Of a stretch of DNA of 64,000 nucleotides, positions 18,520 to 62,766 are shown piece by piece. The notes beneath the pieces are model-generated. The model saw only the letters and a list, made by a program, of their open reading frames with translations, had not been told where the DNA came from and did not search any database. This DNA is from a virus. The DNA lies in IMG/VR virus record IMGVR_UViG_3300037475_000064; one strand, written 5' to 3'. A program made the translations under genes and the position numbers. Each line of letters begins with the position of its first letter. Position 1 is the stretch's first letter.

Positions 18520-18764
18520 GCGAGATTGCGGGCGTCCCGAATTTCGACCGGCCCGGGAGTGCTGGACATCACGCGGAGCGTTGGCGTGAGCAGCGAGCGC
18601 AGTGCCTTCGAGAGGCATTCGCGCGCATCGCCGACATTCTTCACCGCGATGTGGCGCTCATGCTCGGAGCAGGCCGGGTTCGTCGCGACGACTTGCGCAA
18701 GCGTCAGGGCCTCAATGGCCTCCGTGACGAGTTCGATCTTAGTCTCTTGCTGAGGATTTGACAT
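18516..18764 (-). CDS. hypothetical protein
   Basis: 82-aa ORF coupled to the polymerase gene. Confidence 0.5.
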   Translation of the reverse strand: MSNPQQETKIELVTEAIEALTLAQVVATNPACSEHERHIAVKNVGDARECLSKALRSLLTPTLRVMSSTPGPVEIRDARNLA

Positions 18765-27180: not shown

Positions 27181-27424
27181 GAGGTCGGTCTCCAGTGAGG
27201 TTGAAAAGAAGTTTGACGGCGCGATCAAGTCTTGTCGAAAGTCGTTTCGCCCGGATGCTCTTGATCACGTCGTTGTAGCGAGACTGGGCGAGACGTTTCT
27301 TCTCGGGATGCGCCACGTGATAATCACGGTGGCGGAGCGCAGTCCGTTTTCGGCTGCACTCATGCGAACACGTTTTCCAATTTTTGTGCGAGGCGAACTC
27401 CGCGCCGCAGGATGAGCATATCAC
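27092..27424 (-). CDS. zinc-ribbon protein, first gene of leftward block (3' end uncertain)
   Basis: GTG start; CSSCG...CSHEC; last ~30 codons overlap the next gene. Confidence 0.4.
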   Translation of the reverse strand: MICSSCGAEFASHKNWKTCSHECSRKRTALRHRDYHVAHPEKKRLAQSRYNDVIKSIRAKRLSTRLDRAVKLLFNLTGDRPHDHYRTIIRRKTRGRTDRDGSRDTRPHVG

Positions 27425-27552
27425 GTGGAGGCACCAATTTCAGACACCACATGCGGTATACCGAGCCGCGAAAATTGTCAAGAGCCTCAAAATGCTTGCA
27501 TTCGTTAACTTTTGATGGTAGTGACCATGTCCCAATCCCCCGGAAAGGTCCT

Positions 27553-29916
27553 ATGATTAGACAGCGTACCCTTGACCTCGCGTGGGAATATGTAGAGCGG
27601 CACCTGTATCGCCGCTATCTTTTTCCGATCAAGCCCGGCGCAAAATTTCCGCCGCTGATCAAGAACAATCTCGAAGACGCATCGTGTGATCCTGAGCAGC
27701 TTCGCGCGTGGGAGGCGAAATGGCCCGGATGTAATTGGGGCGTCGCGCACCGCAAATCGGAGTTGATGGTCGCCGACATTGACGTGAACAAGCTCAAAGG
27801 CAAAGTCGGTCAGGCCACCTTCGATGGCCTCGACCTGATCTACGGTTGGCCGCCGACCGAGATGACCACGACGCCGTCCGGCGGCTGGCACATGATATAC
27901 GAAGGTTGGGCCAACGAGAACCACCCCGCTCACATCATGGCGCTCGGCGAGAACGGCATCGGCAAGGACATCGACAGCCCGAACTATACGCTGATCCCGG
28001 GCTGCACGTTTGACGATGGCACGTCCTACGTCGGCAACGACGCCGAAGCCGTCAAGTGCCCAGAATGGATATACGACACCATCAAGAGTGCGAAGACCAA
28101 GAGCCGCGTCACGGACGCAGGCGAGGTCGTCATTGAACTCGACCAGCAAGCCAACATCGAACTCGCGATTGACTTCCTCCAGAATGACGCCGCGCCATCC
28201 ATCCAAGGCTCAGGCGGCGACTTCAATCTGCTCAAGGCCGCCTACTACCTCAAGGACATCGGTATCTCGCAAGGGCTCGGCGCAGAACTCTTGAACGAAT
28301 ACTTCAATCCGCGTTGCGAGCCCGCGTGGGACGTGGCCGATCTCGAAAAGAAGATGGCGGGCGCGTACAGCTACGCCAATCTCTCGAAGGTAGGCGGAAA
28401 GACAGCCGAGGCCGACTTCGCCGACGAGCCGCCAGAAGCCCCAATAGAGCCGATGGGCATCTGGGACAACGAGACAAAGTCCTACAAGAAGGACCCGAAG
28501 CGGCTCAAGGGTCAGGTCAAAGCGCGAGCCAAAGTGCGTAAGCGTGAAGAGGGAAAGCTCGACGACCCGAAACGGGCGAAGACAAAGGCCAACGTCCTCG
28601 ACCAGTTCGTATGGGTCGTCGGCATGGAGCGGTTCATCAACATCGTGGACCCGGTCGGAAACGATGAACGCGACATCTGGAAACGCTCGCAGTTCGACAG
28701 CGAGTTCAACAAGATTTGGTTTCCCGCACCGAAGCGCGGCAGTGCATCGGATTTCCTGCTCCGCGTCCCCAAGGGCGGCTTGCAAAGCTTCTACCGTGTC
28801 GCGTTCAAGCCCGGGCAGCCGCGTTCGCTCGACGGCGGGCTGGCGTTCAATATGTACCGCGCGCCCGATGTGGTGCCTGTCGAGGGCGACCTCGCGTGGT
28901 GGGATGCTCATCTCGAATACCTGTTCCCGGAAGAGACCTATCGAAACCATCTCTTGGATTGGATGGGTTGGCTTGTGCAGAACCTCGACAAGAAACCGAA
29001 GCACGCGCTGATCATTCAGGGCGAGGTCAACGGCACGGGCAAGAGCTTCATCGGCAAGGTGCTCGCCCGCATTCTGCACGAGGCGAACGTCTCCATCGTT
29101 CCACAGAACGGGCTCTCGGGCCGGTTCAACTCGTGGGCTCTCCAGTGCAAGCTCATCCTGATCGAAGAGTTGCGCGCCTCTGACAAGCGCGCGGTCAAGG
29201 AAGCTCTGCACGACATTATCACCGAGGACCGCATCAACGTCGAAAAGAAAGGCGTCGATAGCATGATGGTCGATACCTGTTTCGGCGTCATGGCCTTCAC
29301 CAACGACGACGCCGCGCTCGACCTCGACAACACCGACCGCCGCTACCTCGTGATCCGCACCGACCGCACTGAGGCCGAGGCGCTTGCGCTGTCGGCGCAG
29401 GGCTACTTCATCCGGCTCTTCGCCAAGCTTGAGGACCCGACCGCGATGGCCGCCGTCGCCTACGCGCTCATGAACCGCGATCTCAAGGGCTACAACGGGC
29501 AGGCCGCCGCACCGAAGACCGAGGCAAAGGGTGGCATGAAGAAAGCCGCGATGAGCGACCTTGAGCATCACCTCGACGAGAACCGGGGCGAGTGGCCGCT
29601 CTCCAGCCGCCTCGTGACCATTGAGGACGTGATCTCATCGCTACCGAAACGTATCGAGCAGAAGGGCTACCGGCTGCACGGTACGATCAAGAAGTTCCTG
29701 TTGACCGACCTCGACGGCATTGACCTCGGCCAGTGCACGACGCCGAGTGGCAAGAAACCGCGCCTGTACGCCATCAACGGCGCGGGCAACATCCTGTCGG
29801 CCCAGCCGCGCACCGTAGCGGGCAAAGTCTACGAGGACGACAAGGTCCGGGCTGGCAAGAACCAACCGCTCGAAGACATCGACGACGCCGCCAGTGAGTT
29901 CGACGGAAAAGAATAG
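27553..29916 (+). CDS. bifunctional prim-pol primase / D5-type SF3 helicase
   Basis: N-terminal prim-pol motifs (VADIDV, GGWHMIY), central D5_N-like region, P-loop GEVNGTGKSF; ATG at 27553 with GGAAAGG RBS. Confidence 0.85.
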   Translation: MIRQRTLDLAWEYVERHLYRRYLFPIKPGAKFPPLIKNNLEDASCDPEQLRAWEAKWPGCNWGVAHRKSELMVADIDVNKLKGKVGQATFDGLDLIYGWPPTEMTTTPSGGWHMIYEGWANENHPAHIMALGENGIGKDIDSPNYTLIPGCTFDDGTSYVGNDAEAVKCPEWIYDTIKSAKTKSRVTDAGEVVIELDQQANIELAIDFLQNDAAPSIQGSGGDFNLLKAAYYLKDIGISQGLGAELLNEYFNPRCEPAWDVADLEKKMAGAYSYANLSKVGGKTAEADFADEPPEAPIEPMGIWDNETKSYKKDPKRLKGQVKARAKVRKREEGKLDDPKRAKTKANVLDQFVWVVGMERFINIVDPVGNDERDIWKRSQFDSEFNKIWFPAPKRGSASDFLLRVPKGGLQSFYRVAFKPGQPRSLDGGLAFNMYRAPDVVPVEGDLAWWDAHLEYLFPEETYRNHLLDWMGWLVQNLDKKPKHALIIQGEVNGTGKSFIGKVLARILHEANVSIVPQNGLSGRFNSWALQCKLILIEELRASDKRAVKEALHDIITEDRINVEKKGVDSMMVDTCFGVMAFTNDDAALDLDNTDRRYLVIRTDRTEAEALALSAQGYFIRLFAKLEDPTAMAAVAYALMNRDLKGYNGQAAAPKTEAKGGMKKAAMSDLEHHLDENRGEWPLSSRLVTIEDVISSLPKRIEQKGYRLHGTIKKFLLTDLDGIDLGQCTTPSGKKPRLYAINGAGNILSAQPRTVAGKVYEDDKVRAGKNQPLEDIDDAASEFDGKE

Positions 29917-37797: not shown

Positions 37798-37830
37798 GGT
37801 GAGAAAAGAGGTGAGAAATTTGGTGAGAAA
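37798..37830 (+). repeat. iterons: 3 x GGTGAGAAA at 12-bp spacing
   Basis: Copies at 37798, 37810 and 37822; immediately upstream (minus sense) of a TTGACA at 37791-37796. Confidence 0.8.
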
Positions 37831-38032
37831 TTGGGCGTTTGGGGTCGATTTTCACTGTTTTTGGGTCGGATTTCATTTTCGCCGACCCGCATAAACATTG
37901 GGTTTCTTGCATCGCGGAGGCCCGAAAACAGGGTCTTTTTCGGTCGCTAATCGGTCGTCCGCTGGGGGCCGCGATAAACCTTAACTCTTGCTAACGTGCT
38001 CTGATCAAAGCTCAATTCGGCGCGCGGCCCAA

Positions 38033-38121
38033 TTTCTCACCTCTTTTCATTTCTCACCTATTTCTCACCAAATTTCTCATCTTATGTCGTTGATAACACA
38101 ACAATTTCTCACCTTCTCACC
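38033..38121 (-). repeat. iterons: 5-6 copies of the same 9-mer in opposite orientation (TTTCTCACC)
   Basis: Copies at 38033, 38050, 38061, 38073 (degenerate), 38105 and 38114. Confidence 0.8.
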
Positions 38122-38174
38122 TCTTTTACATATTCTTTAGTGAGTATGGTGTGTGTATAGGAGTTGACGAATTT

Positions 38175-38191
38175 GGTGAGAAGGTGAGAAA
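38175..38191 (+). repeat. iterons: 2 adjacent GGTGAGAA(A) copies
   Basis: GGTGAGAAGGTGAGAAA. Confidence 0.7.
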
Positions 38192-38220
38192 TCGGGTCAC
38201 TTTTGGGGCCTTTGGCTCAT

Positions 38221-38590
38221 GCAAGGGGTAGCTGCTATTAGGGTTAATTTAGAGTTAAGATAAACCCTGCATCGTGGCGTTTTAACCTTAACAGTTAAGA
38301 TTAATGCGCACGAAGGCCCCTGTGGCGGCTATTAACCCTATCAATTAACCTTAATTTAGGGGTTGTAGGCCCCTAAAGGCTTGATATTATTAACTTTTAT
38401 TCTTTACGTTAATCGCTTAGCCCTGCGTATAGCGCATGCACTCATGCACATGCATCCATATCCCCTTGATATCATTACACTATTGTCGTGATGTTCCATA
38501 CTATATGTTATGCGAATTGACGTTAACCTTAATCACTATGCATTAACCTAAATTGTTTACGTTAATCGCTATTAGTAGTGCTCGAAGCAT
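38221..38590. repeat. AT-rich repeat region (TTAACCTTAA x3, TTTACGTTAATCGCT x2, palindromes)
   Basis: TTAACCTTAA at 38282, 38345 and 38523; 15-mer at 38403 and 38556; GCTATTAGGGTTAA / TTAACCCTAT inverted; ATGCA triplet at about 38435-38452; clearly lower GC than its flanks. Confidence 0.75.
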
Positions 38591-38810
38591 TGACCCCTCC
38601 ACAAGATGGTGCTACCCTAGCCTCGCAGAGATAGGCCGTAGGACCCAGATTTTGCATCGAAGCGCCAGACGCAATGTCCCCCTGCTCGCACACACCGCCT
38701 CGATTTTGAACCGAAATTTAGAAAAATAAAAATATGAGGATTAAGAAAAACTCTTGCCTCCCCAAATTTTTCGTGCTAGGGCAACCTGACAATTTCACAA
38801 GGTCCCCAAC

Positions 38811-48521: not shown

Positions 48522-48908
48522 TCAGATGAAATAGATTTTGCCTCCGATAGCGTAGAGCCCAACCTCGGCGCGTTCGCATGCTTTGCTTAGCTCGTTGCCG
48601 AGCGGTCCCAATGTCTCGCGGTCCCAGAAGCCGACACCATGACCATTCCGCGTGAACCAAAAGTCGCGTCCGGCTTGGGTCGGGCCGTAGTCGTCGCACG
48701 CATACGCGCGGTCGAGCAGCGCGACGTTCTCAGTCTGGAAACCTAAGCAATCGCTGAGAGCCCGATCATACGCCTCTTTCGAAACGTCCGCGAACGTCAG
48801 TCCGGGGACCTCGTCGGTGAAGAACGCGGCTTCCCAATAGCCTTGCGTGAACTCGTCTAGCGCCTGCCATGTCTGTTGCTGGCCTAGCGGCATCTCAAAC
48901 TTCGGCAT
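48522..48908 (-). CDS. conserved hypothetical protein (GRDFWFTRNGHGVGFWD motif)
   Basis: 128-aa ORF; the motif is remembered from mobile-element proteins of unknown function. Confidence 0.55.
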   Translation of the reverse strand: MPKFEMPLGQQQTWQALDEFTQGYWEAAFFTDEVPGLTFADVSKEAYDRALSDCLGFQTENVALLDRAYACDDYGPTQAGRDFWFTRNGHGVGFWDRETLGPLGNELSKACERAEVGLYAIGGKIYFI

Positions 48909-50070: not shown

Positions 50071-50343
50071 ATGGCCCAGACGGTCGATGATGTTCTCCGT
50101 GATCTCGCCAAGCGCGGCGAGATCAGTCACATCAGTCTCGTGCCATCGCAGAACGGGAAGCTCTGGCGCGCATCGTTCGCGATGTGCTCCAAGTTCGGCG
50201 TCTCATTCGCGGAAGACGCGGACCCGGCGAAGGCGATCATCCTCGCCTGCACGTCGGCGAAAATGAAGCCGCGTCCAGCGGAGAAGCGCCACGCGAGCCT
50301 TGAGGCCGCCGCCGTGGAGGACCCGCTCGCCGATCTCATGTGA
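50071..50343 (+). CDS. hypothetical protein
   Basis: 90-aa ORF. Confidence 0.5.
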   Translation: MAQTVDDVLRDLAKRGEISHISLVPSQNGKLWRASFAMCSKFGVSFAEDADPAKAIILACTSAKMKPRPAEKRHASLEAAAVEDPLADLM

Positions 50344-50411
50344 TTGCCAGTTGTCCCGGACGGAGCGATGCGCTAAGTTTAACGCCCAATCCCGCCACCC
50401 GGAGCCGACCC

Positions 50412-50654
50412 ATGGCCAAGCTGACCGCGAAGCGTCGCAACGCTCTCCCCGCCTCGAAGTTCGCCCTTAAGCAGGGCGGCAAAGAAAAATACCCGGTTGA
50501 TACGAAGGGGCGGGCCGTCGCTGCCAAGGGCCGCGCTACGCAGGCCGTGGCGAAGGGAAGGCTAACCCCTGAGCAAGCTTCGAAGATCAAGCACAAGGCC
50601 GACGCGGTCCTCGGCAAGCATGATTGCGCGTACCACAACACAGGGAAGTGCTGA
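50412..50654 (+). CDS. small basic protein (DUF6582-like pattern)
   Basis: ATG at 50412 with GGAG RBS; RRNALPASKFALKQGGKEKYPVDTKGRAVAAKGRA. Confidence 0.5.
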   Translation: MAKLTAKRRNALPASKFALKQGGKEKYPVDTKGRAVAAKGRATQAVAKGRLTPEQASKIKHKADAVLGKHDCAYHNTGKC

Positions 50655-50656
50655 TC

Positions 50657-50956
50657 ATGAAAGACGCCAAAGGACACGGCAGCAACACGCGCAATGCGAT
50701 GCTCGACATCAACGGACGCGGCATCATGCCGAGCCGTCCGTTCCGCGAGGGCACCGCTCATCAGGTTTCGCTCGCCGAGGACCATGGCGTCGCAACGGAC
50801 CATCTGCTCAACGGTCAGGGCCATGCCTACGGCTCGCCCGCCGCGCTCGCCGACTTCAAGGCGCAGTACGGCGGACCGCGCAATCATGCGGCGGAAGATC
50901 GCGCGTTCCGCAGCGGGCAGCGTGAGATCAATCGCCTTCGACGACAGGGGAAATAA
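50657..50956 (+). CDS. GHGSN-leader family protein 1
   Basis: Starts MKDAKGHGSN. Confidence 0.6.
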   Translation: MKDAKGHGSNTRNAMLDINGRGIMPSRPFREGTAHQVSLAEDHGVATDHLLNGQGHAYGSPAALADFKAQYGGPRNHAAEDRAFRSGQREINRLRRQGK

Positions 50957-50958
50957 TC

Positions 50959-51249
50959 ATGAAAGACGCACTAGGACACGGGTCGAACACCGGGCTCCAC
51001 TCGGGCGGGACGCAGAAGACGCCGCAACTACAGCGTCGGCACTTCGAGGCGATTGCCGCTGACTTGAAGGCCAAGAGCGCGTCGCCCGAAGAGGTTCACG
51101 CAATGGCTGACAAGCTCGCGACCACGAACCCCGGCTTCCGCCGGGACTTCTTTGTCGCTGCCGCGACCGGCGGCGGCTATCGGTTCAAGGGGCCGGGCAA
51201 CAACCCGGCGTCTGTCGCGCGCAAAGCGAAGAAATACTCTGGGGGCTAA
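50959..51249 (+). CDS. GHGSN-leader family protein 2
   Basis: Starts MKDALGHGSNTGLHSGG; AGGGGA RBS. Confidence 0.6.
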   Translation: MKDALGHGSNTGLHSGGTQKTPQLQRRHFEAIAADLKAKSASPEEVHAMADKLATTNPGFRRDFFVAAATGGGYRFKGPGNNPASVARKAKKYSGG

Positions 51250-51335
51250 GGATGCAATGTGGTACGCGAACGCGCTCTTTCGACTGGGCTTGTTCGTGAT
51301 CGCAGCGAGCATCTTGCTTGCGAAGGGACGATGGA

Positions 51336-51599
51336 ATGAAAGACGCAGCGGGACATGGCAGCAATGGGAAGGGCAGCAACTCGGCTCTGACCAAGACGCA
51401 AGGTCCCGCGTCCCCGATACCTCGCGGGCCGACCGGCAAGGGCGGTAAGGGCTTCGGACAAGTTCACGGCGGCGTCGTGATGTCGTCGAATGCACAAGCG
51501 GCGGGCGCTCTGATGTCCTCGCTAAAATCAACTCAGGCCCCGGTCCATCCTGCTATGATGTACCATCGGCCATCACCGGACGGCGGATCAGCATCATGA
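51336..51599 (+). CDS. GHGSN-leader family protein 3
   Basis: ATG at 51336, MKDAAGHGSN; Gly/Lys-rich. Confidence 0.55.
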   Translation: MKDAAGHGSNGKGSNSALTKTQGPASPIPRGPTGKGGKGFGQVHGGVVMSSNAQAAGALMSSLKSTQAPVHPAMMYHRPSPDGGSAS

Positions 51600-52102
51600 A
51601 AGACGCAAAAGGTCACGGCAGCAATGCAGGCTGGAAAGTATCGCTGACCGGCAAAGGCACCGAAGACGGCGTCAAGTGGTCGCGAGTTTCGCGTGAGTTC
51701 AACGTCCCTGCGAGCCGTGCGCGCACTCAAGCTGACGCGGAGCGCGAAGCTATCAACGCGCACGAGAGCATGGGCTGGTACAAGAACATGAGAGTGACTG
51801 GCAGTGAACCGATCTTTGATCCGGCTCACGAACTCGCCAGCGGCCCGAAGTCGGCACCGGCTCCCGTTCACGACAGCATGTCCGGGCGGCTCCAAACGCC
51901 GGGCGAGCAGTATGCGATGAAATCCTCGGGCGGGCCGAAGTGGAAATATCAGGATGCGCGCGGCGTTGATCAGACCGGCCACATGGAGCGGTACGTCGAA
52001 CACGGCGGAACCGATCACACCGCATATATGCGGAGCGACAGCGGCGATCTTCACCTAGTCAGCGGCTCACGCCTCAAGGCGATGAGCAGAATTTGGAAAT
52101 GA
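51596..52102 (+). CDS. GHGSN-leader family protein 4
   Basis: MKDAKGHGSN; internal LASGPKSAPAPVHDSM; ATGA overlap. Confidence 0.6.
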   Translation: MKDAKGHGSNAGWKVSLTGKGTEDGVKWSRVSREFNVPASRARTQADAEREAINAHESMGWYKNMRVTGSEPIFDPAHELASGPKSAPAPVHDSMSGRLQTPGEQYAMKSSGGPKWKYQDARGVDQTGHMERYVEHGGTDHTAYMRSDSGDLHLVSGSRLKAMSRIWK

Positions 52103-52103
52103 T

Positions 52104-52298
52104 ATGTCGCGCAAAAAGAAACACGAAGTAGATGACAAAACCGCGAAGGAAGCGCTACGCTACGGCGGCAAGTCTGGCGCGGTGCCTACGCACTCTGCAA
52201 TGCAAGACCCCGACGCTGACGCAACCGACGCCGAGCCCGACGATGACAGCAACGAAGACGAAGACAACGACAACGACTTCGACGAGAACCGGAGCTAA
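52104..52298 (+). CDS. small highly acidic protein
   Basis: 64 aa; GGKSGAVPTHSAM then a D/E/N-rich tail. Confidence 0.5.
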   Translation: MSRKKKHEVDDKTAKEALRYGGKSGAVPTHSAMQDPDADATDAEPDDDSNEDEDNDNDFDENRS

Positions 52299-52301
52299 GT
52301 C

Positions 52302-52373
52302 ATGATCGCAGACCTATTCGCGATACTCGTTTGCGGCGGCGCAGTCTTCGCGCTGCTTAAAGGATTTTTCTGA
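52302..52373 (+). CDS. 23-aa hydrophobic peptide
   Basis: Hand translation MIADLFAILVCGGAVFALLKGFF; GGAG RBS at 7 nt. Confidence 0.4.
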   Translation: MIADLFAILVCGGAVFALLKGFF

Positions 52374-52374
52374 A

Positions 52375-52971
52375 ATGAGCAAAGTCAGCCGCAAGGCATT
52401 TCCGCATGCCCTCAAGGCGGTCTACGATTTCATTGACGCGCTCGCAGCGGGCGGCGGAGGCGGCGGAGGCACCGCTGCGTATTCGGTCACTATCCCGCTC
52501 GTTACGAGCGCGACCCCGCTCGTCGTCACGCCGGACGTGAATGCTCCGCCACTGACGATCTACGAAGTCACCAGCGGCGGCACTGGGGGCAACGAGTTCA
52601 TCGGTTTCGTGCGCTATGCCAAAGACGCGGACCTGACGTTTGGCAACCTCACTCAGAACGGCAAGCATGCGGTGTTTGTCCTAAAGACGCGAACGAACGC
52701 GCTGGACAAGGTCTATATTCAGGGCCTCCCCACGGCTGCCGACATCAGCGGGTCGGCTCGCGCTAATCAGACTTTCTACGACGCGGCGGGAAAAATTGTC
52801 GCGCACATCAACACCGGAAACACCGCGACCCCCGGACCGGGCGGCTCGTTTGGCGGGGCTCTCATCGACTACGTCGGCGCTGCCATGGCGTACACGTGGA
52901 TGTACGAAGAGTGGGCCGCGCGTCAGGACATGGTTGACGAAGAAAACGACAACGATATCGTAACCCCGTAA
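52375..52971 (+). CDS. hypothetical protein (Gly run, beta-rich)
   Basis: 198-aa ORF. Confidence 0.55.
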   Translation: MSKVSRKAFPHALKAVYDFIDALAAGGGGGGGTAAYSVTIPLVTSATPLVVTPDVNAPPLTIYEVTSGGTGGNEFIGFVRYAKDADLTFGNLTQNGKHAVFVLKTRTNALDKVYIQGLPTAADISGSARANQTFYDAAGKIVAHINTGNTATPGPGGSFGGALIDYVGAAMAYTWMYEEWAARQDMVDEENDNDIVTP

Positions 52972-52981
52972 GGAATGACAG

Positions 52982-53497
52982 ATGGCTAAAGATCAACTGG
53001 GACACGGCAGCAATCAGCGGGGCACGGGCGCGCAGGGAATGCGGCTCGTGAAAACGCATGTGCTCGGCCCTCACTCCGCCAAGGTCTACAAGAACCCGGA
53101 TTGGGAAGAGAACGTCGTCAAGTTTTTCCACAACGGCGTCTACCAGTCGAAGGCCGATAGTCATACGAACGATCTCGCGGACGCGCACGCGACGGCGCGC
53201 TTTCAGCTTCAACGCTACATGGATCAGGACGCAAAGGCGTCACTGGCCAGCGGCCCGAAGTCGGATGCAGCCCCGACGCACGATAGCATGACCAACCTAC
53301 AGGGTAGCATCGAACGCGGTCACGCGATGCGCTCCGCAGGCGACGGCAGGCACGTATCGGGCTTTGCAGCGGGCGGTCGTCACGGCTACAGCCCCGACGC
53401 GGTCAACAAAGCCATCGCCTCGTCGAACCGCTCCGGTCGGCGCATCGGCGGACGTGAAGCGAAGATGATCCACGCCATTATCAAGGGCCGGGGGTAA
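52982..53497 (+). CDS. GHGSN-leader family protein 5
   Basis: MAKDQLGHGSN; internal LASGPKSDAAPTHDSM. Confidence 0.6.
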   Translation: MAKDQLGHGSNQRGTGAQGMRLVKTHVLGPHSAKVYKNPDWEENVVKFFHNGVYQSKADSHTNDLADAHATARFQLQRYMDQDAKASLASGPKSDAAPTHDSMTNLQGSIERGHAMRSAGDGRHVSGFAAGGRHGYSPDAVNKAIASSNRSGRRIGGREAKMIHAIIKGRG

Positions 53498-53609
53498 ATG
53501 GTCGGCCAGAGAATTTCGAAGCCGGTTCAACTCGCCGTTAAGATTGTTTTGCCGAACCGCGTGCAACGAACGCCGGTCCCGGATAAAAAGCCCGAGAAGG
53601 ACAAAGACA

Positions 53610-53843
53610 GTGAAAGACCCACTAGGACACGGTAGCAACGGGCGCGGCGCATTCAAATCGCCGAAGCATCAGTTCAAGGTCGAGAAGCACATCGCTTTTC
53701 ACGGAACGACTGCGGCTGGCCAGAAGGTCACCACGACCGGCAACGTCTGGCAAAAAGTCGGCGCGGGTCGTCGGGCTGTCGCAGAGAAGCTCGCGCAATT
53801 CGCTCGTGTCGATAATCCCAACTCTCGCGTGAGGATCAGATAA
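53610..53843 (+). CDS. GHGSN-leader family protein 6
   Basis: GTG at 53610 gives VKDPLGHGSN at the same N-terminal position as its paralogues; GAAGGA RBS. Confidence 0.5.
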   Translation: MKDPLGHGSNGRGAFKSPKHQFKVEKHIAFHGTTAAGQKVTTTGNVWQKVGAGRRAVAEKLAQFARVDNPNSRVRIR

Positions 53844-53845
53844 AC

Positions 53846-54079
53846 ATGAAGGCAGCAATTCCCTCAGTGCTCGCGCTCGCTATCGTCGCCGTGCTCGCCT
53901 ATTTCCACGACTGGCAGACGCAGGCCCCAGTCGCGGCTCCCGTGATCGGGCCGTTCGCGTATGCGGACGCTGTCATGCCGTCGTTCGTACCGACGCCGAA
54001 GCCGCGTCCGCGACATCATCGGCGTCATCGTTTCGCTGTTTGCAAGCCGCCGCTGCCCGGACTGGAGTTATCGAAATGA
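53846..54079 (+). CDS. N-terminally anchored membrane protein
   Basis: 77 aa; TM IPSVLALAIVAVLAYF. Confidence 0.5.
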   Translation: MKAAIPSVLALAIVAVLAYFHDWQTQAPVAAPVIGPFAYADAVMPSFVPTPKPRPRHHRRHRFAVCKPPLPGLELSK

Positions 54080-54513
54080 AGGACGCGCTAGGTCACGGCA
54101 GCAACGCGCATAGCGGCGGCATCGAAAAGATCGGCAAGATCAAGGTGCATCCGCAGGCGACGGCCACTGCCGTCTATAATCTGCTCCATTCGGGCGGCTT
54201 CTCCGTCAAGCCTGAGACCGGCGCTTCACCGAAATCGGGCTACATGGTTTCGATACCGGGGCACACGAAGATCATCGCGGGCGACCCCGACGAGCGTGCA
54301 ATCCAGCAGTACGCGAATGAACACGCTGGCGTGCTTCAACATCCCGGAGCCCATATCGGCGGCTGGCAGCACGAAGGCAATACCTACCTCGACGTGTCCC
54401 ATCGGTACAGCAGCAAGAGCAAAGCCGCTGCCGCCGGAAAGCAGCACAATCAGATCGCGATATGGGATGTGAAACATGGGCGAGAGATCAACACGGGCGG
54501 CACCGGGGAGTAG
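54076..54513 (+). CDS. GHGSN-leader family protein 7
   Basis: MKDALGHGSNAHSGG; globular C-terminal domain (GGWQHEGNTYLDVSH...NQIAIWD); ATGA overlap. Confidence 0.6.
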   Translation: MKDALGHGSNAHSGGIEKIGKIKVHPQATATAVYNLLHSGGFSVKPETGASPKSGYMVSIPGHTKIIAGDPDERAIQQYANEHAGVLQHPGAHIGGWQHEGNTYLDVSHRYSSKSKAAAAGKQHNQIAIWDVKHGREINTGGTGE

Positions 54514-54726: not shown

Positions 54727-54804
54727 CGGAGTTGCCAGTTGTTTGTCGCCGTCAAGCCTAGTAAGCTTGGCGGCGAAATCACATCTGCGCGCGAGGGCTA
54801 CATC

Positions 54805-55110
54805 ATGGTTGCAAATCATCCCGGCATGACCGATCAGACTTCGAGCAACATTGCTCGGGACGGCGCGGCCAAGAAAACCCAGACCAAATTCCCCGTCAAG
54901 GACGGCATGAAAAATCAGACCCAAGTGCTGAGCGGCGTGAGCCCGGCCAACCCCGGCGTCGGCCCCGATGCCGCCCCGGCCAACCCGCTTTCGCCGGAGC
55001 CAAAGCAGAAGCACTCGCAGGCCATCCCGAAACACCCCGGCATGAAGGGCGAGCACGATGCAGCCCTCGGCAGTGCGGTTCTCGCCGAGGCGGCCAATCT
55101 TGGCCGCTAA
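54805..55110 (+). CDS. disordered protein with repeated HPGM
   Basis: ATG at 54805 with GAGGG RBS. Confidence 0.45.
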   Translation: MVANHPGMTDQTSSNIARDGAAKKTQTKFPVKDGMKNQTQVLSGVSPANPGVGPDAAPANPLSPEPKQKHSQAIPKHPGMKGEHDAALGSAVLAEAANLGR

Positions 55111-55138: not shown

Positions 55139-55438
55139 ATGGCAGACGGCGGTACTGAATTTGTCGGCTCGCATGAGAAGGCGCGCAACGGTTACGGCCA
55201 GAACGGCTACCAAGGCCCGGCGAGTGATCTTCCCGGCCAGAGCACGCGGATGGACCGCGACTACGGCCTCGCGGCTGATCCGTCCGCCGACGCGGGCAAC
55301 TGGCAGACGCGCGTCGTCCCCAAGTATGACTGCCCGCCCGCATTCGGTATGAAGTCCCCCGCCGAACCCGCCAAGGTGCCCGACGCCACCATGCGCCGCG
55401 CTTCGAAGCAGGCCGCGCCGGGCTCTTTCCAGCGGTAA
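55139..55438 (+). CDS. hypothetical disordered protein
   Basis: 99-aa ORF. Confidence 0.5.
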   Translation: MADGGTEFVGSHEKARNGYGQNGYQGPASDLPGQSTRMDRDYGLAADPSADAGNWQTRVVPKYDCPPAFGMKSPAEPAKVPDATMRRASKQAAPGSFQR

Positions 55439-55600: not shown

Positions 55601-55675
55601 GCGCATATCCTGCGGATATGCGCGAACTCGTATAGGACGTGGCGCGCATGAGCGCGCTCCATCGCTTGAGCGATG
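55601..55675 (+). promoter_or_regulatory. three consecutive palindromes upstream of terS (pac/cos or attenuator candidate)
   Basis: GCGCATATCC-TGC-GGATATGCGC (55601-55623); GCGCGC-ATGA-GCGCGC (55642-55657); CATCGCT-TG-AGCGATG (55660-55675). Confidence 0.4.
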
Positions 55676-55693
55676 TTACTGGAGGATACCCGC

Positions 55694-56494
55694 ATGCGCG
55701 GCGACGACATAGACCTCGAAGAGATGCTCGGCCCCTCCCCGGCGGTCGAAGCGGAAGAAAACCTCGTTGATGCGGCCCCGGTAGATTATCCGAGCACGGC
55801 CCTCATGAAACGCTCGCGCAGCTACCCCATCAATCGCGCAGCGAAGAAAAACACCCAAGAACGTCTCAAGCGCGCTTTGAACTACGTTGCCGAAATGCCG
55901 GTCACCGCCGACGTTGCGCGTCGCATGGGCCTGAGCAACGCAACCCTCAAGTATTGGCTCCAGCGCTCCTTCGAAGGCGCTCCGGGAGATGGCTTTGACA
56001 TCGCCATGGGCGACGACGACGAGAACGGCACCGAAGACAACACCATTCGGTTTCACGAAGCATGGGACCTCGCGATGCTGTCCGGCGTCGAGCGCGTCGA
56101 GGCCGCAGCGATCAAGCGTGCGACCGGCTACGACGAGACGCTGACCTATCGCGGTCAGGTGCAGTATCGTTACGATCCGGTCAAGATGGCCGAGAGCCGC
56201 TTGCTCGGCATCCCTGAGCTAGTCCCGGAGAATTATCTGCTCGACGAGTTCGGCGCTCCCGTCCCGGAGACGGTCCTCAAGATGGACCCGGACCTCGCGA
56301 TGTTCATCCTGAAAGCCCGCAAGCCGCAGACCTACGGCGCGAAGGCAAGCGTGGATATCAACGTCAAGGGCGGCGTGCTTGTGGTCCCGATGCGTGCTGT
56401 CGATGCAGCCGAGCTAAACGAGATCGAAGATCGATATCGAAAGAACGGTCGGCCCTCCGTCACATTCGAAGAGGGCGACGAAGACGATGTTTGA
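55694..56494 (+). CDS. terS: terminase small subunit candidate
   Basis: GGAGGA RBS; HTH-like VTADVARRMGLSNATLKYWLQR; directly upstream of and overlapping terL. Confidence 0.55.
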   Translation: MRGDDIDLEEMLGPSPAVEAEENLVDAAPVDYPSTALMKRSRSYPINRAAKKNTQERLKRALNYVAEMPVTADVARRMGLSNATLKYWLQRSFEGAPGDGFDIAMGDDDENGTEDNTIRFHEAWDLAMLSGVERVEAAAIKRATGYDETLTYRGQVQYRYDPVKMAESRLLGIPELVPENYLLDEFGAPVPETVLKMDPDLAMFILKARKPQTYGAKASVDINVKGGVLVVPMRAVDAAELNEIEDRYRKNGRPSVTFEEGDEDDV

Positions 56495-58082
56495 GATCGC
56501 GGGCGCAGTCGAGACGTTCAAGTCGATCAACGGCGAGTACGTCCCGTTCGTGCGAGACGCTAACGGAATTTTGAAGGCCGTAGCTTGGGCACCGCAGCCC
56601 GGCTCGCAAGCCTTCTTCCTCGCGGACCCCACGGTCGAGGTCCTCTACGAGGGAACGCGTGGCCCGGGTAAGACCGACGCGCTGATCATGGATTTCTGCC
56701 AAGAGATCGGCAAAGGCTACGGCGCGGAGTGGAAAGGCATCCTGTTCCGACAGACGCATCCGCAGTTGCGCGACATCATTGAGAAGTCGAAGAAGTGGAT
56801 CAAGCGCATCTGGCCGGATGCAATCTACAACGAAGTCAAAACGATGTGGGAGTGGCCAACAGGCGAGCGCCTGTACTTCGCGCACTTCAATGTACGCAGC
56901 GACTACGACAACTACCATGGTCACGCCTATCCGTGGATTGGTTGGGAAGAGTTGACCAACTGGCCTAACCCGGATTGCTACAAGAGCATGTTCTCGTGCT
57001 CGCGTTCGACGATCAAGGGGATGCCGCGCAAAATCCGCTCGACGACGAACCCCTACGGCGTCGGGCATAACTGGGTCAAGGCGCGCTGGCGGTTACCGAT
57101 CAATGGCGAGATCGGTCCGAACGGCACGCGGCCTAGTGTTGGGCCGATCATCATTGGCGAGATAGACGAAGACGGAAACAAAGAGCCGCCGCGTCGCGCC
57201 ATCCACGGCTATCTCGACGAGAACCAGTTGCTCTTGCACGCCGACCCCGAGTACAAGGGGCGTATCGCGGCTGCGGCGAGAAACGCGTCGGAAAAAGCGG
57301 CGTGGCTCGAAGGCTCGTGGGACATCGTCGCAGGCGGCATGTTCGACGATATTTGGTACGAGTTTCGCGACACGATTGTCATGGAGCCGTTCGACATCCC
57401 GCCGGGATGGAAAATCTATCGAGCCTATGACCACGGCTCGTCGAAGCCATTCTCGGTCGGCTGGTACGCCGTCAGCGATGGCACGGACTTCAAGCTTCGC
57501 GACGGTCGCATCCGCTCGACCGTGCGCGGCGATATGTTTCGGTTCAAAGAGTGGTACGGCTGGCGTGGTCAGGCTAACGAAGGCTCGCGGATGCTCGTCG
57601 CGGATATTGCGAAGGGCATCATCGAACGCGAGATCAAGTGGGGCCTGCGCGCGGCGGACGCCTCGTGGACCCGCGTCAGCCGAGGCCCGGCGGACAGTTC
57701 GATTTTCGACGACAACACGAATGGCTCAGATGTGTCCATTGCTACCGACTTCGAGAAGCGCGTCACGATAAACGGCGTCAGTCATCGGGGCATTTTCTGG
57801 GAACGCGCCGACAAGGGACCCGGCTCGCGTGAGCAGGGATGGGAGCAGATCAGAAAGCGGCTCAAGGCGACCAAGCGTCCGCCGGGCGGCTTCCGGGAAA
57901 TCCCCGGGCTGTTCATCACCACCGAATGCGTACAATGGCTTCGATGCGTGCCTGTGCTGCCGCGTGATGAGTTGAAGATCGATGACGTTGACGATGAAAG
58001 CGAAGACCATAATGGTGACGAAACGAGATACATGCTGCGCTTCGAGGTTCGGACCATGAAGTCCGGGCGGGTCGCAGCGTAA
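56487..58082 (+). CDS. terL: terminase large subunit
   Basis: 531 aa; Walker A-like GTRGPGKTDA, C-terminal nuclease-type acidic motifs (AYDHGSS, EDHNGDETRY). Confidence 0.85.
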   Translation: MFEIAGAVETFKSINGEYVPFVRDANGILKAVAWAPQPGSQAFFLADPTVEVLYEGTRGPGKTDALIMDFCQEIGKGYGAEWKGILFRQTHPQLRDIIEKSKKWIKRIWPDAIYNEVKTMWEWPTGERLYFAHFNVRSDYDNYHGHAYPWIGWEELTNWPNPDCYKSMFSCSRSTIKGMPRKIRSTTNPYGVGHNWVKARWRLPINGEIGPNGTRPSVGPIIIGEIDEDGNKEPPRRAIHGYLDENQLLLHADPEYKGRIAAAARNASEKAAWLEGSWDIVAGGMFDDIWYEFRDTIVMEPFDIPPGWKIYRAYDHGSSKPFSVGWYAVSDGTDFKLRDGRIRSTVRGDMFRFKEWYGWRGQANEGSRMLVADIAKGIIEREIKWGLRAADASWTRVSRGPADSSIFDDNTNGSDVSIATDFEKRVTINGVSHRGIFWERADKGPGSREQGWEQIRKRLKATKRPPGGFREIPGLFITTECVQWLRCVPVLPRDELKIDDVDDESEDHNGDETRYMLRFEVRTMKSGRVAA

Positions 58083-58135: not shown

Positions 58136-58651
58136 ATGCAGCTAGGTTCGGAGACTTTTGTCAGAAGTCGGGGACGTATCTCGACGCCGGAGACGCGTGA
58201 GGCCGAAAAGCTTCGAGCGCGAGCGAAGCGCGCTGTCAACCGTGAGCCTAGTCGGGCTGCGGCGCGTCGCTACAACGCTAATCATCCCGGTCGGCATCAA
58301 GAGGCGCGGCGAAACTGGCGCTATGCTAATCCGGTAAAGCGCCTTCTCCAGACTGCTAAGGCTAGGGCAAAGCAGCGAGGTCTTGAGTTTGCTATCACTG
58401 CGAACGACCTCCAGCCGTTCCCCACGCACTGTCCTGTGCTTGGGATAAAACTTCAATACGGTGGGGAGCAGGGAAAGAATTTGCGGGCGAAAAGCAAGTG
58501 GGCGCTCGCGTCCCTTGATCGTCGTGACAATTCTCTCGGATATATTTCCGGGAATGTTTTTATCATCAGCCTTCGCGCTAACATGCTAAAGAGTGATGGC
58601 ACTCCCGATGAGCATCGCGCTATCGCTAAATGGGCGGGAGAGATCACATGA
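58136..58651 (+). CDS. HNH endonuclease
   Basis: CPVLGIKLQY...ASLDRRDNSLGYISGNVFIISLRANMLK; basic repeat N-terminus; GAGGA RBS. Confidence 0.7.
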   Translation: MQLGSETFVRSRGRISTPETREAEKLRARAKRAVNREPSRAAARRYNANHPGRHQEARRNWRYANPVKRLLQTAKARAKQRGLEFAITANDLQPFPTHCPVLGIKLQYGGEQGKNLRAKSKWALASLDRRDNSLGYISGNVFIISLRANMLKSDGTPDEHRAIAKWAGEIT

Positions 58652-60348: not shown

Positions 60349-60596
60349 GTGATCCGGCTGGGCCGCATATCGTTCGGACGTTCCGCGAAGCTATCGATAT
60401 TCTCGATCAGAGCGAACCGAAAATTCGTGACCTGATCGAGACCCATCTGATGGATGTCGCGGGCATCAATCGCACGAAGGTCAGCGACGCCATGCTGAGC
60501 CGAGATGACCTCACTCAACAGATCGCGCTTATTCGCCATCATCACATGAGGGCGGCGTTTCGTCATTTAAGGGACCATCTGCCAAGTGACATATGA
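60345..60596 (+). CDS. hypothetical protein
   Basis: 83 aa, ATGA overlap. Confidence 0.5.
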   Translation: MSDPAGPHIVRTFREAIDILDQSEPKIRDLIETHLMDVAGINRTKVSDAMLSRDDLTQQIALIRHHHMRAAFRHLRDHLPSDI

Positions 60597-61557
60597 TCCA
60601 TCACAGGCTCGCAATAACCACGGCGAGTTCGGCACGACGGATGTCGCGCTCAAAGGGCCTCAACAGACGGGAGGCGCGAGTGCGCTTGTCACTGAGCGAC
60701 CGATCAACCTTGCGGCTCATAAGGGAGCAGACACTCCCGAGGAAGCGCAGGCGCAAGCGACCCTTGTCGCGGCTGGAGCAAAACCTCTTGAGGGGCTGCC
60801 TCAGAAGCCTATCGAGTTGGCCGGACAATGGTACGTCCCCGGTCCGATTGGTCGGCTCAAGGATGCCGCCAGTGAGTACATGAAAGAGGCCGGGCTGCCG
60901 TACAACCCGCCGACCGACTACGCGAAGCTCGACAAAGAGCGAGCCGCGAAGATCGCGGACGCCTATGATCACATGAAGGACGACCCGGCCAACCCCGAGG
61001 TGAAGAAGAGCTACGACGCGCTCGTCAAGGAAACTCTGGCACAATGGAACGTGATCAAGCAGACCGGCTTGCAAGTCGAGTGGGTCAAGCCCGGGCAGAA
61101 GGACCCTTATGCGCTGTCGCCGCGTCTCGCTGCGATGGACGTGAGCGAAAATAATCATTGGTGGGGCTTCCCCACGGACCTCGGCTACGGCTCGGGCGTC
61201 GGCAAAAGCAACACGGGAGAGACGAACCCGATGCTCAGGCCGACCGGCGAAGTGATCGGCGGGCGGCCCGTGGTCGTCAATGACGTGTTCCGCATCGTGC
61301 ACGACATGATGGGGCACCTCAAAGAAGGAAATGGTTTCAGGGCCGAGGGCGAGGAAAATGCTTGGCGCTCTCACGCTGCGATGTATTCGGATACTGCACG
61401 CCCGGCGATGACTTCGGAGACGCGCGGTCAGAACTCGTGGGTCAACTACGGCCCGCACGGCGTTACGAACCGCACCGCTGACGCGGAGCATACGGTCTTC
61501 GCTCCGCAGAAGATCGGGCTCATGCCGGACTGGACAGAGAATGACGGACGACATTGA
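60586..61557 (+). CDS. head-module protein of unknown function
   Basis: 323 aa, GTG start; N-terminal DPSQARNNHGEFG; conserved-looking VHDMMGHLKEGNGFRAEGEENAW. Confidence 0.55.
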   Translation: MTYDPSQARNNHGEFGTTDVALKGPQQTGGASALVTERPINLAAHKGADTPEEAQAQATLVAAGAKPLEGLPQKPIELAGQWYVPGPIGRLKDAASEYMKEAGLPYNPPTDYAKLDKERAAKIADAYDHMKDDPANPEVKKSYDALVKETLAQWNVIKQTGLQVEWVKPGQKDPYALSPRLAAMDVSENNHWWGFPTDLGYGSGVGKSNTGETNPMLRPTGEVIGGRPVVVNDVFRIVHDMMGHLKEGNGFRAEGEENAWRSHAAMYSDTARPAMTSETRGQNSWVNYGPHGVTNRTADAEHTVFAPQKIGLMPDWTENDGRH

Positions 61558-61905: not shown

Positions 61906-62766
61906 ATGAGACTGAAAACCATCTATGACACTGCCGAGGAAATCCCCGAAGGCTATGCCGATCTCTACACCGAGCGGAATGGCCGCTGGGAATTGACCGG
62001 CGTCGAGGGCGTGAAGACCCAAGCCGACATCGACCGTGTTCAAAGCGCGCTCGTGAAAGAGCGCAACGACCACAAGCAGACGAAGGCGGCGCTCGTGCCG
62101 TTCGAAGGTCTCGACCCGGATCAGATCAGCGCGAATGCTACTGCGCTCGAAGAGGCCCGGGCGCAACTCGAAGCCATCAACAAAGATGGCCGCATCGATG
62201 AGACCAAGCTGGAGCCGATCATCGCGGCCCGTATCCGTCAGGCCGTTGCTCCGCTGGAGCGCGACAAGACCAATCTGGAGCGTCAGCTTGACGCGCAGAA
62301 GAAGGTCGTCGTGGAGAAAGACAACGAAGTCGTGTCTCTCCGCACTTCGATCACGTCAGAGAATATCGAACGTGCGGTCCGTGACGCTGCGTCGATGGAG
62401 AAGGTCCTCCCGACCGCTCTTGACGACGTGACGCTTCGTGCCTCGCGCGTCTTCGAGAAGACCGAGGACGGTCGCATCGTCACCAAGGATGTCCCCGGCA
62501 CCACTCCGGGCCTCTCGCCCAAGGAATGGCTCAAGGACATGCAAGACAAGGCCCCGCATTGGTGGCCCACGTCGGTCGGCAGCGGCGCGCAGGGCGGCAG
62601 CGGCGCTCGCGGTACCTACGGCGGTGCGAACAATCCGTGGTCGAAGGAAGGCTGGAGCCTAACGAAGCAGGGCGCACTCGTGCGTCAGCTTGGCGAAGCG
62701 AAGGCTGGAGAGATCGCGGCGCAAGTCGGCTGCAAAATCGGAGACACGAAGCCCGTCGCAGCCTGA
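61906..62766 (+). CDS. scaffolding-like coiled-coil protein
   Basis: 286 aa, long helical/charged centre, strong GGAGG RBS, strong terminator downstream. Confidence 0.5.
   Translation: MRLKTIYDTAEEIPEGYADLYTERNGRWELTGVEGVKTQADIDRVQSALVKERNDHKQTKAALVPFEGLDPDQISANATALEEARAQLEAINKDGRIDETKLEPIIAARIRQAVAPLERDKTNLERQLDAQKKVVVEKDNEVVSLRTSITSENIERAVRDAASMEKVLPTALDDVTLRASRVFEKTEDGRIVTKDVPGTTPGLSPKEWLKDMQDKAPHWWPTSVGSGAQGGSGARGTYGGANNPWSKEGWSLTKQGALVRQLGEAKAGEIAAQVGCKIGDTKPVAA

Follow-up and report, generated by a model that had tools for sequence, protein, structure and literature searches.

A short peptide before unrelated phage proteins: a candidate cargo tag on effector modules of the polyvalent type

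In phage T4, the internal proteins, which are mostly small, basic and unrelated to one another, and the ADP-ribosyltransferase Alt carry a short N-terminal capsid targeting sequence and are delivered with the DNA; the prohead protease removes this sequence at L/I-x-E sites. Encapsulins, which are bacterial compartments, receive diverse cargo by means of a conserved loading peptide of about ten residues, usually C-terminal and of the GSL type, that directs proteins into an HK97-fold shell. In polymorphic toxins, a short invariant demarcation motif (VENN in CdiA, PxxxxDPxGL in Rhs) stands before a variable effector module and persists across lineages. Jamet et al. reportedly described, in 2017, MuF polymorphic toxins of temperate phages, in which variable effector domains are carried on a portal-adjacent head protein. 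To our knowledge, the proteins that phages inject, and how these are chosen, are known for few model phages only. Here we study seven genes at positions 50657-54513 of a 64,000-nucleotide stretch of DNA (IMG/VR record IMGVR_UViG_3300037475_000064), all of which open with a common peptide that we call the leader. The stretch as a whole, which we call the window, belongs to the genome of an uncultivated tailed phage.

A further group with which these genes must be compared is that of the polyvalent proteins of phages and conjugative elements, which are predicted, in passages of Iyer, Burroughs, Anand, de Souza and Aravind (2017, PMC5512222), to act at or just after DNA entry. With moderate confidence, we propose that the leader is a cargo tag on unfused, virion-delivered effector modules of the polyvalent type, and that it serves capsid loading and/or processing. 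The packaging of the tagged proteins, their injection and any cleavage are steps that we infer; the motif, its selection as a peptide, its position before cargo modules, the polyvalent type of the cargo and the links to portal-adjacent proteins by fusion and synteny can be read directly, and we begin with the motif.

The leader peptide in the window and in other phages

Seven plus-strand open reading frames (ORFs) each open with M-(A)-K-D-x-x-G-H-G-S-N, and K-D-x-x-G-H-G-S-N lies directly behind the start codon in all seven. The original prediction had recognized these genes, at the same starts, by their common N-terminus, and this is borne out by our check of the ORFs, by a pattern scan and by shuffled sequences. 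It had also called the decapeptide invariant, which is true of K-D and GHGSN in the window, but the fourth position varies, with A in five copies and Q and P in one copy each, and gene 5 has one additional Ala behind its Met. The genes are listed here with their lengths in amino acids (aa) and, in two cases, the isoelectric point (pI); the second motif that appears in three of the lines is treated in the next section.

50657..50956, plus strand: leader gene 1, 99 aa, MKDAKGHGSN..., pI 10.2
50959..51249, plus strand: leader gene 2, 96 aa, MKDALGHGSN..., with a tail family found in 17 loci
51336..51599, plus strand: leader gene 3, 87 aa, MKDAAGHGSN..., rich in G, P and S, second motif STQAPVHPAM
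51596..52102, plus strand: leader gene 4, 168 aa, MKDAKGHGSN..., second motif LASGPKSAPAPVHDSM
52982..53497, plus strand: leader gene 5, 171 aa, MAKDQLGHGSN..., residues 26-77 matching phrog_7884, second motif LASGPKSDAAPTHDSM
53610..53843, plus strand: leader gene 6, 77 aa, GTG start, VKDPLGHGSN..., pI 11.7, a conserved family
54076..54513, plus strand: leader gene 7, 145 aa, MKDALGHGSN..., the most widely conserved family of leader proteins

The back-translated pattern AARGAYNNNNNNGGNCAYGGNWSNAAY has exactly seven matches in the window, all on the plus strand and all at the starts of the leader genes, and it has none in 100 shuffles of the window that preserve dinucleotides. Beyond the seven starts, GHGSN does not occur in any of the six reading frames of the window. 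An independent gene call, made on a public 84-kb contig of the same DNA (L086), contains six of the seven leader genes with identical starts; gene 3 is left uncalled by the public gene caller. When the seven proteins are scanned, no Pfam, NCBIfam or PHROG model covers the leader, and PHROG matches to the tails, that is, to the parts behind the leader, are confined to gene 5 (phrog_7884) and gene 7 (phrog_3170 and phrog_17808). We considered the leader as a secretion signal and rejected this, as no hydrophobic stretch is visible by eye.

The original prediction noted that the similarity extends to the DNA. It does, but as a by-product of the conservation of the peptide together with a preference for A-ending codons near the start. 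Exact identity among the window copies extends over just 11-14 nucleotides (nt) or so, and the only feature shared by the sequences 5' of the starts is a G-rich patch resembling a Shine-Dalgarno sequence. Among the leader copies, both families of Ser codons (AGY and TCN) and every codon for Gly, His, Lys and Asp are in use. For example, four identical copies of KDPLGHGSE within one protein are written in differing codons. This use of all synonymous codons shows that it is the peptide on which selection acts. Near the starts there is a marked skew towards A-ending codons (AAA at 60% against 28% in the background, GCA at 65% against 14%, and GGA at 50% against 13%); however, this skew is found in stand-alone leader genes and is missing from the copies inside larger proteins, and we therefore regard it as an effect of the start codon. 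Thus, the codon evidence makes a function at the level of DNA or RNA very unlikely.

As a separate observation, two phages that are about 99% identical differ by a 160-nt indel inside a leader gene (L052 2479-2680 versus L039, reverse complement, 1682-1724). The indel begins about 22 nt past the K codon, at the 3' end of the leader; it is a single case and may be due to chance.

A comparison of the leader with sequence databases, suggested along with the original prediction, shows that the motif is widespread. The DNA pattern occurs in 61 stretches of IMG/VR contigs, with one to six exact matches each, which lie on one strand only within any locus. When these loci are translated, 259 leader ORFs result (up to about 11 in one locus), of which 204 are unique. 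The 204 unique proteins have the consensus M-(A/P/S)-K-D-[A/P]-x-G-H-G-S-[N/D/E]-x-[R/H]-G-[G/A], in which K, D, G, H, G and S are invariant. A profile compared with 1.84 billion cluster representatives finds 449 proteins at E <= 1e-3; a profile search with leader segments returned short proteins only, and the census comes from the exhaustive search of the cluster representatives. Where the large terminase subunit (TerL) is present in the locus, the tagged genes keep a fixed position with respect to it: in 26 of 27 such loci all of them lie upstream of TerL on the same strand, the nearest being 1.7-6 kb away.

The same pattern produces 15 single matches in bacterial genomes, which is near the number expected by chance according to our estimate. 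About five of these look real, and all five are metagenome-assembled genomes (MAGs) of Alphaproteobacteria; the host assignment, probably Hyphomicrobiales, is drawn from these five. The small number of bacterial matches implies that tag-bearing phages are not common prophages. Full-text searches of the literature for strings of the leader motif, of the junction motif and of the second motif (both introduced below) returned nothing relevant. The original statement that the motif has no described function therefore stands, in that neither a family model (Pfam, NCBIfam, PHROGs) nor a paper in the full-text search was found for it.

Cargo modules, alone and within giant proteins

The tails of the leader proteins fall into at least 45 clusters, 28 of which are singletons, and the content of modules differs greatly between related phages. 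Some families are nearly constant: in a clustering of ORFs, the gene-7 type is present in 31 loci and the gene-6 type in 21, the gene-6 family comprising 13 unique tails when the tails are clustered. It had been said that the tails cannot be aligned by eye. A pairwise comparison of the seven window tails finds no significant similarity apart from the second motif, a stretch of some 20 aa that genes 3, 4 and 5 have in common, so that the statement is right except for these three. The suggestion that the leader might belong to one ordinary domain family is refuted by the number of tail clusters, by the lack of a Pfam, NCBIfam or PHROG model for the leader, and by the disorder of the leader in the structural model of gene 7.

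The tails that can be recognized are of the kinds known from polyvalent proteins. Among representative tails of related loci, two families match ART-PolyVal (PF18760) at 1e-12 and 1e-9, above the curated Pfam cut-offs, and one tail matches Arr-ms at 7e-7, also above its cut-off. A match to GNAT (Acetyltransf_1) lies just over the cut-off at 4e-4, and a weak match to ParB_N lies below it. By eye, one tagged family, with three unique tails in few loci, has an HExxH motif. The proteins are strongly basic: the pI exceeds 8 in 94% of leader proteins, with a median of 9.9, compared with some 55-64% in a noisy background of conserved ORFs. In the window, each of the seven proteins is a single module of 77-171 aa, and the family library scan recognizes no domain in the six tails other than that of gene 7.

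Structure modelling covered one leader protein, that of gene 7. Its AlphaFold model has a mean pLDDT of 87, with residues 1-20 disordered and residues 21-145 forming a compact alpha/beta domain; the pLDDT is below 50 at residues 4-16 and mostly above 85 in the remainder. Neither this domain nor the portal-adjacent protein has a significant fold match in the PDB, and a sequence search of the PDB likewise returns none. Among predicted viral structures, by comparison, the gene-7 domain has 22 significant matches. These include five targets of 767-1102 aa, of which one is named as having a Zeta toxin domain and one as XkdF; another match is a mycobacteriophage protein of 433 aa.

The second motif reads AxxLASGPKSxPxPVHDSM and occurs in leader genes 3, 4 and 5 as well as in the leaderless ORF at 52104, these four sharing LASGPKSxAxPxHDSM. 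Its core, P[VIAT]H..[ML], is present in 49 of the 204 leader proteins of the related loci, nearly always with the full motif, and a related xPxHPGM occurs twice in the conserved ORF at 54739-55110. The second motif resembles a further short docking peptide. About a quarter of the proteins have a third motif, (A)AHQxGVxx[VI]G, behind the leader, from which it is separated by a linker of variable length (0-50 residues). Of the window genes, gene 7 alone shows it clearly (AHSGGIEKIG, window 54076-54150).

Outside the array, a 128-aa ORF on the minus strand at 48522-48908 has the segment DFWxTRNGHGxGFWDR in common with the C-terminal module, preceded by a leader, of a database protein (P0214). Thus, at least one module of the cargo type is present here untagged and on the other strand.

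The leader is not confined to protein N-termini. Among 232 retrieved proteins it is N-terminal in 219 and elsewhere in 13, and ten of these 13 have two to four copies at the junctions between modules (..AKAKDAxGHGS[N/E]KRG..). Such multi-copy proteins include P0124 (1590 aa, four copies), P0136 (1380 aa, four), P0166 (1078 aa, three) and P0225 (1210 aa, two). In each, the motif comes before every downstream module and never at the extreme N-terminus of the first, anchor-like part, and some of the modules are homologous to tagged proteins that stand alone. To judge from the sequences, the tag belongs to the cargo module, and what is conserved is the unit of tag plus cargo module, whether fused or separately encoded.

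These large proteins are associated with head genes. The gene for P0136 lies directly behind a portal gene, in a head module unrelated to that of the window; the protein has weak matches to head-morphogenesis PHROGs and, by eye, a MuF-type HPRCRC core and an R-S-E ADP-ribosyltransferase, its assignment to MuF being a combination of the weak PHROG matches and the motif read by eye. P0124 and P0166 are encoded 1-2 kb upstream of giants (1600-1732 aa) that have ART-PolyVal and intein domains. In P0124, P0136 and P0166 themselves, which span 1078-1590 aa and have three to four tagged modules each, no effector domain is named by Pfam.

In the giants themselves (L085 14871-20069 and L088 13508-18310; 1600-1732 aa), Pfam recognizes ART-PolyVal and an intein splicing domain. 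Inspection by eye finds their MuF HPNC/CRC core (HPNCRC) interrupted by the intein, and a peptidase-like HExxH motif as well.

The portal-adjacent protein, a second junction motif and the genomic setting

In the window, the gene that follows the portal gene encodes a protein of 323 aa (60586-61557), which is linked to leader gene 7 in several ways. Both proteins match the profile phrog_3170, the portal-adjacent protein at positions 186-268 and gene 7 at positions 301-398. In cluster C mycobacteriophages, the two domains are found in one 433-aa protein of the structural region (BackyardAgain gp103). In a further protein, P0419, a gene-7-like domain is joined to a portal-adjacent domain (hhalign probability 98.7%, E 2e-16), and there the gene-7-like domain is preceded by NPNHDAKGRFASG in place of KDAxGHGS.

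This other sequence belongs to a second junction motif, [FY][DN]P[DN]x(P)RDxxG[RKE][FW], which shares with the leader the skeleton basic-D-x-x-G-basic. It precedes ART-PolyVal in the 1732-aa polyvalent protein of L085 (KSNPNHDERGRFTFT), and it opens the portal-adjacent protein of the window (TYDPSQARNNHGEFGTT) as well as 103 of 120 of its homologues. In related loci it opens post-portal proteins of about 750-800 aa, ART-like by eye, and of 340 aa, with HExxH. The two motifs occupy the same positions, as both stand at the N-terminus of modules encoded alone and at junctions within giant proteins, and they precede the same domains, gene-7-like in P0419 and ART-PolyVal in L085. They differ in that the junction motif has an aromatic residue where the leader has G-S, is commoner, and occurs in post-portal genes as opposed to the array before terS. 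By these comparisons of sequence, the tag and the junction motif appear to be interchangeable. The portal-adjacent protein has a confident structural model and an invariant HDxxGH segment, which suggests that it is an enzyme. Neither it nor any of the seven leader proteins has a Pfam or PHROG match to the MuF domain.

The remaining features of the array and its surroundings are as follows.

15940-18618: DNA polymerase, in the minus-strand replication block
27412-29916, plus strand: primase gene, inside the minus-strand replication block
50340..50654, plus strand: conserved small gene directly 5' of the array, probable start 50409 (81 aa), match to phrog_16160, present in 26 related loci
52104..52298, plus strand: leaderless ORF in the array, 64 aa, pI 4.3, second motif SGAVPTHSAM
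52375..52971, plus strand: leaderless ORF in the array, 198 aa, pI 4.9, with a poly-Gly run
53846..54079, plus strand: leaderless ORF in the array, 77 aa, hydrophobic N-terminus
54739..55110, plus strand: conserved small gene in the gap between the array and terS, 37 loci, low-complexity by eye, two xPxHPGM motifs
55139..55438, plus strand: conserved small gene in the same gap, 34 loci
55673..56494, plus strand: terminase small subunit-like gene (terS), phrog_4044 at 1.4e-12
56487..58082, plus strand: terminase large subunit gene (terL), product 58% identical to TerL of Roseobacter phage RDJL3
58630..60348, plus strand: portal protein, phrog_145 at 3e-106
60586..61557, plus strand: portal-adjacent protein, 323 aa, opening with TYDPSQARNNHGEFGTT
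61906..62766, plus strand: head scaffolding protein, phrog_206 at 5e-40

A plus-strand block thus begins at about 38.8 kb and runs from small genes through the array, terS, terL, portal and the 323-aa gene to the scaffold gene. The seven genes had been described as a tandem array lying immediately upstream of terS. They do lie on the same strand, but three leaderless ORFs are interspersed among them, and the second part of the description is incorrect, as the two conserved small ORFs at 54739-55110 and 55139-55438 intervene. Besides the identity of TerL, the portal and scaffold proteins are 43% and 41% identical to those of RDJL3; neither the leader genes nor the 323-aa gene is matched in the packaging-head region of RDJL3.

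Several observations on this region stand apart from the leader. At about 37800-38800, transcription diverges between the minus-strand replication block to the left and the plus-strand block to the right, and at 38-40 kb the G+C content falls to 0.546; this region may serve in control or as an origin. Between terL and portal, a 171-aa ORF at 58136-58651 resembles an HNH-type homing endonuclease by eye (..SLDRRDNSLGYISGNV..); it has no Pfam match and is absent from the public gene call. Within the array, the ORFs at 52104-52298, with a C-terminal tail rich in D, E and N, and at 52375-52971 are acidic amid strongly basic leader genes. They could be partners or antidotes of the neighbouring cargo, or DNA mimics.

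Readings of the leader and its relation to known systems

We have proposed that the leader is a cargo tag. On this proposal, modules of polyvalent-type effectors would be tagged by a short linear motif, the leader, that lies in a disordered stretch. In some phages the modules would be strung together in giant head-associated proteins with a tag ahead of each, and in the lineage of the window they would be separate small genes, each starting at its tag, in a fast-changing array 5' of terS, terL and portal. The strict conservation of the tag at the N-terminus of hundreds of unrelated stand-alone proteins argues for one common partner, which most likely recognizes the tag in virion assembly or delivery. 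Loading of the basic cargo into the capsid, its processing, or both would be the task of this partner, and the cargo would enter the host with the DNA. It is the fusions, the synteny and the type of cargo that place the tagged proteins in the world of virion-delivered effectors.

If this proposal is correct, candidate injected effectors could be read from genomes and metagenomes by means of a strictly conserved tag. The cargo families, at least 45 in number and mostly without a known function, would likely be anti-defence or host-takeover factors. The relation of giant polyvalent proteins to arrays of small genes would be explained, the long-standing idea that polyvalent proteins are packaged and processed would become directly testable, and the tag might be put to use in bringing foreign proteins into phage capsids. 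Should the partner prove to be a host factor or a protease, the leader would still constitute a new and widespread short linear motif of phage proteins.

More tentatively, KDAxGHGS and its counterpart RDxxGRF/W may together be portable tags of several unrelated head lineages, by which arbitrary effector modules would be loaded into capsids and released in the host; that is, they may form a general delivery code defined by sequence. Two arrangements would then be open to a phage: a single giant polyvalent protein, or a 'distributed polyvalent protein' whose tagged cargoes, as many as a dozen or so, are encoded separately and can be freely exchanged.

A number of results weigh against the proposal that the leader is a cargo tag. 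At least three phage lineages, among whose head genes no relationship is detectable, use the tag. Of the window proteins that were used as queries, none has a homologue in two distant tag-bearing loci, and hence no candidate receptor emerges. Among cultured phages, a tblastn search of 50,697 phage records with gene 6, gene 7 and the consensus leader finds no leader-bearing relative; the only matches are to tail domains, in cluster C mycobacteriophages and one Fusobacterium phage. The position upstream of terS is one where many phages keep accessory or early genes, and in a scan of the array for promoters and terminators the counts are not above those in shuffles, and no signal delimits a transcription unit. 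The original prediction, which took the leader to be shared by diverse virion-linked cargo, gains from the cargo domains, from the punctuation of giant proteins and from the fusions between the gene-7 and portal-adjacent domains, but no prohead protease is recognized among the scanned genes from portal to scaffold, which are the part of the head module inside the window. Finally, for loading alone, one copy per polypeptide should be enough, and the repetition of the tag ahead of every module in the giant proteins suggests that it has a further or a different role, for instance in processing.

We examined four genes as candidates for the receptor, namely those at 54739-55110, 55139-55438, 50340-50654 and 60586-61557, and rejected them, as they are absent from two unrelated tag-using lineages.

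The repetition just mentioned leads to the main rival of the cargo tag, in which the motif is chiefly a site of proteolytic processing, where cleavage would be autocatalytic or the work of a metallopeptidase or head protease of the phage. The site would separate the modules of giant effectors; the stand-alone proteins would carry it as a short propeptide and would mature or become active on losing it, wherever this takes place. The motif is indeed present at every module junction of the multi-copy proteins, its invariant D, H and S could form a recognition or catalytic site, and HExxH proteins are found both among the tagged families and among the post-portal proteins that open with the junction motif. 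Cutting of polyvalent proteins by their metallopeptidase domains has, moreover, been proposed in passages of Iyer et al. (PMC5512222). However, stand-alone proteins have no need of separation and yet retain the motif strictly, the HExxH proteins occur in few loci only (three unique tails), and a disordered peptide of ten residues in front of unrelated folds is an improbable self-cleaving unit. We therefore consider a pure processing site unlikely. Processing is nonetheless compatible with a cargo tag, as targeting sequences of the T4 type are a loading signal and a cleavage site in one. Since the tag is repeated before every module in the giants, processing would be at least a part of the story, and since it is kept on stand-alone proteins, processing would not be the whole of it.

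In a second rival, the motif would be a peptide that docks to a conserved partner, not at the capsid but in the cytoplasm. The partner might be a host hub (a chaperone, protease, polymerase or ribosome) or a phage enzyme by which all the tagged proteins are modified or stabilized, and these would be ordinary expressed effectors. This rival stays alive because phages of unrelated head lineages share the tag and no phage receptor was found to co-occur with it, as would fit a universal host partner. The site of the array, frequent for accessory genes, is in keeping with it, as is the recurrence of further short motifs (LASGPKSxPVPVHDSM and AHQxGVxxVG) in the same proteins, which is typical of proteins built from docking peptides. 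Yet it leaves unexplained why the tag punctuates MuF-like proteins next to the portal, why the gene-7 domain is fused to the portal-adjacent domain, and why the cargo is so strongly basic. On balance we find it unlikely, a little more so than a pure processing site.

Two other readings fare worse. The motif might act as nucleic acid, either as a recombination joint for the swapping of cassettes or as an element of translation initiation or RNA. The A-ending codons near the starts, the 160-nt indel at the 3' end of a leader and the great differences in module content among related phages could be so understood, but the skew is expected near start codons anyway, internal copies encode the identical peptide in differing codons with no A-ending bias, both Ser families and all other synonymous codons occur, and little beyond the short identity described above is common to the window copies or their 5' sides. 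This reading is largely refuted by the codon data, and we give it very little weight. The possibility that the genes encode precursors of ribosomally made, modified peptides (RiPPs), as several tandem genes with a common N-terminal leader and differing C-terminal parts might suggest, is practically negligible, being refuted by the size and fold of the tails (60-200 aa, several of them folded enzyme domains such as ART-PolyVal, with a confident alpha/beta model for gene 7), while the motif also lies inside proteins of 1000-1600 aa, and no RiPP modifying enzyme is recognized in five non-leader ORFs in or beside the array (Pfam and PHROGs) or in seven ORFs at 38.8-50.1 kb (Pfam only).

Returning to the cargo tag as the preferred reading, we regard the tag itself as probably undescribed before, and by analogy the concept resembles that of T4 targeting sequences, encapsulin loading peptides and demarcation motifs. 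The likeness to T4 lies in a short N-terminal peptide on otherwise unrelated proteins, here seven genes in the window and 204 unique proteins with at least 45 tail clusters. It is a likeness by analogy. The T4 sequence looks different, and the T4 signal, unlike the tag, is not known to have internal copies at module junctions; a T4-type protease or an L/I-x-E site was not found here. Compared with the encapsulin peptide, the tag is N-terminal and of another sequence, and its context is that of terS, terL, portal and scaffold genes of a tailed phage. Demarcation motifs lie inside one secreted bacterial toxin, before a single C-terminal module, whereas the tag starts separate phage genes or is repeated before many modules. 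P0136 appears to be a protein of the MuF toxin kind, with four tags; the genes of the window are without a MuF domain and would have the tag in place of covalent attachment.

The polyvalent proteins are the nearest relatives in content. A term search of PMC5512222 retrieves no such leader, linker or short-motif peptide, and the processing proposed in the passages retrieved is that by metallopeptidases only. Those passages describe the same repertoire as that of the tagged proteins (ART-PolyVal, ParB-like, GNAT and metallopeptidase-like domains) and an association with portal, MuF and terminase genes like that of the tagged genes here. The tag is found both inside such giants and next to them. 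Whereas a polyvalent protein is one multidomain polypeptide, the modules of the window are single-domain genes, each opening with the tag.

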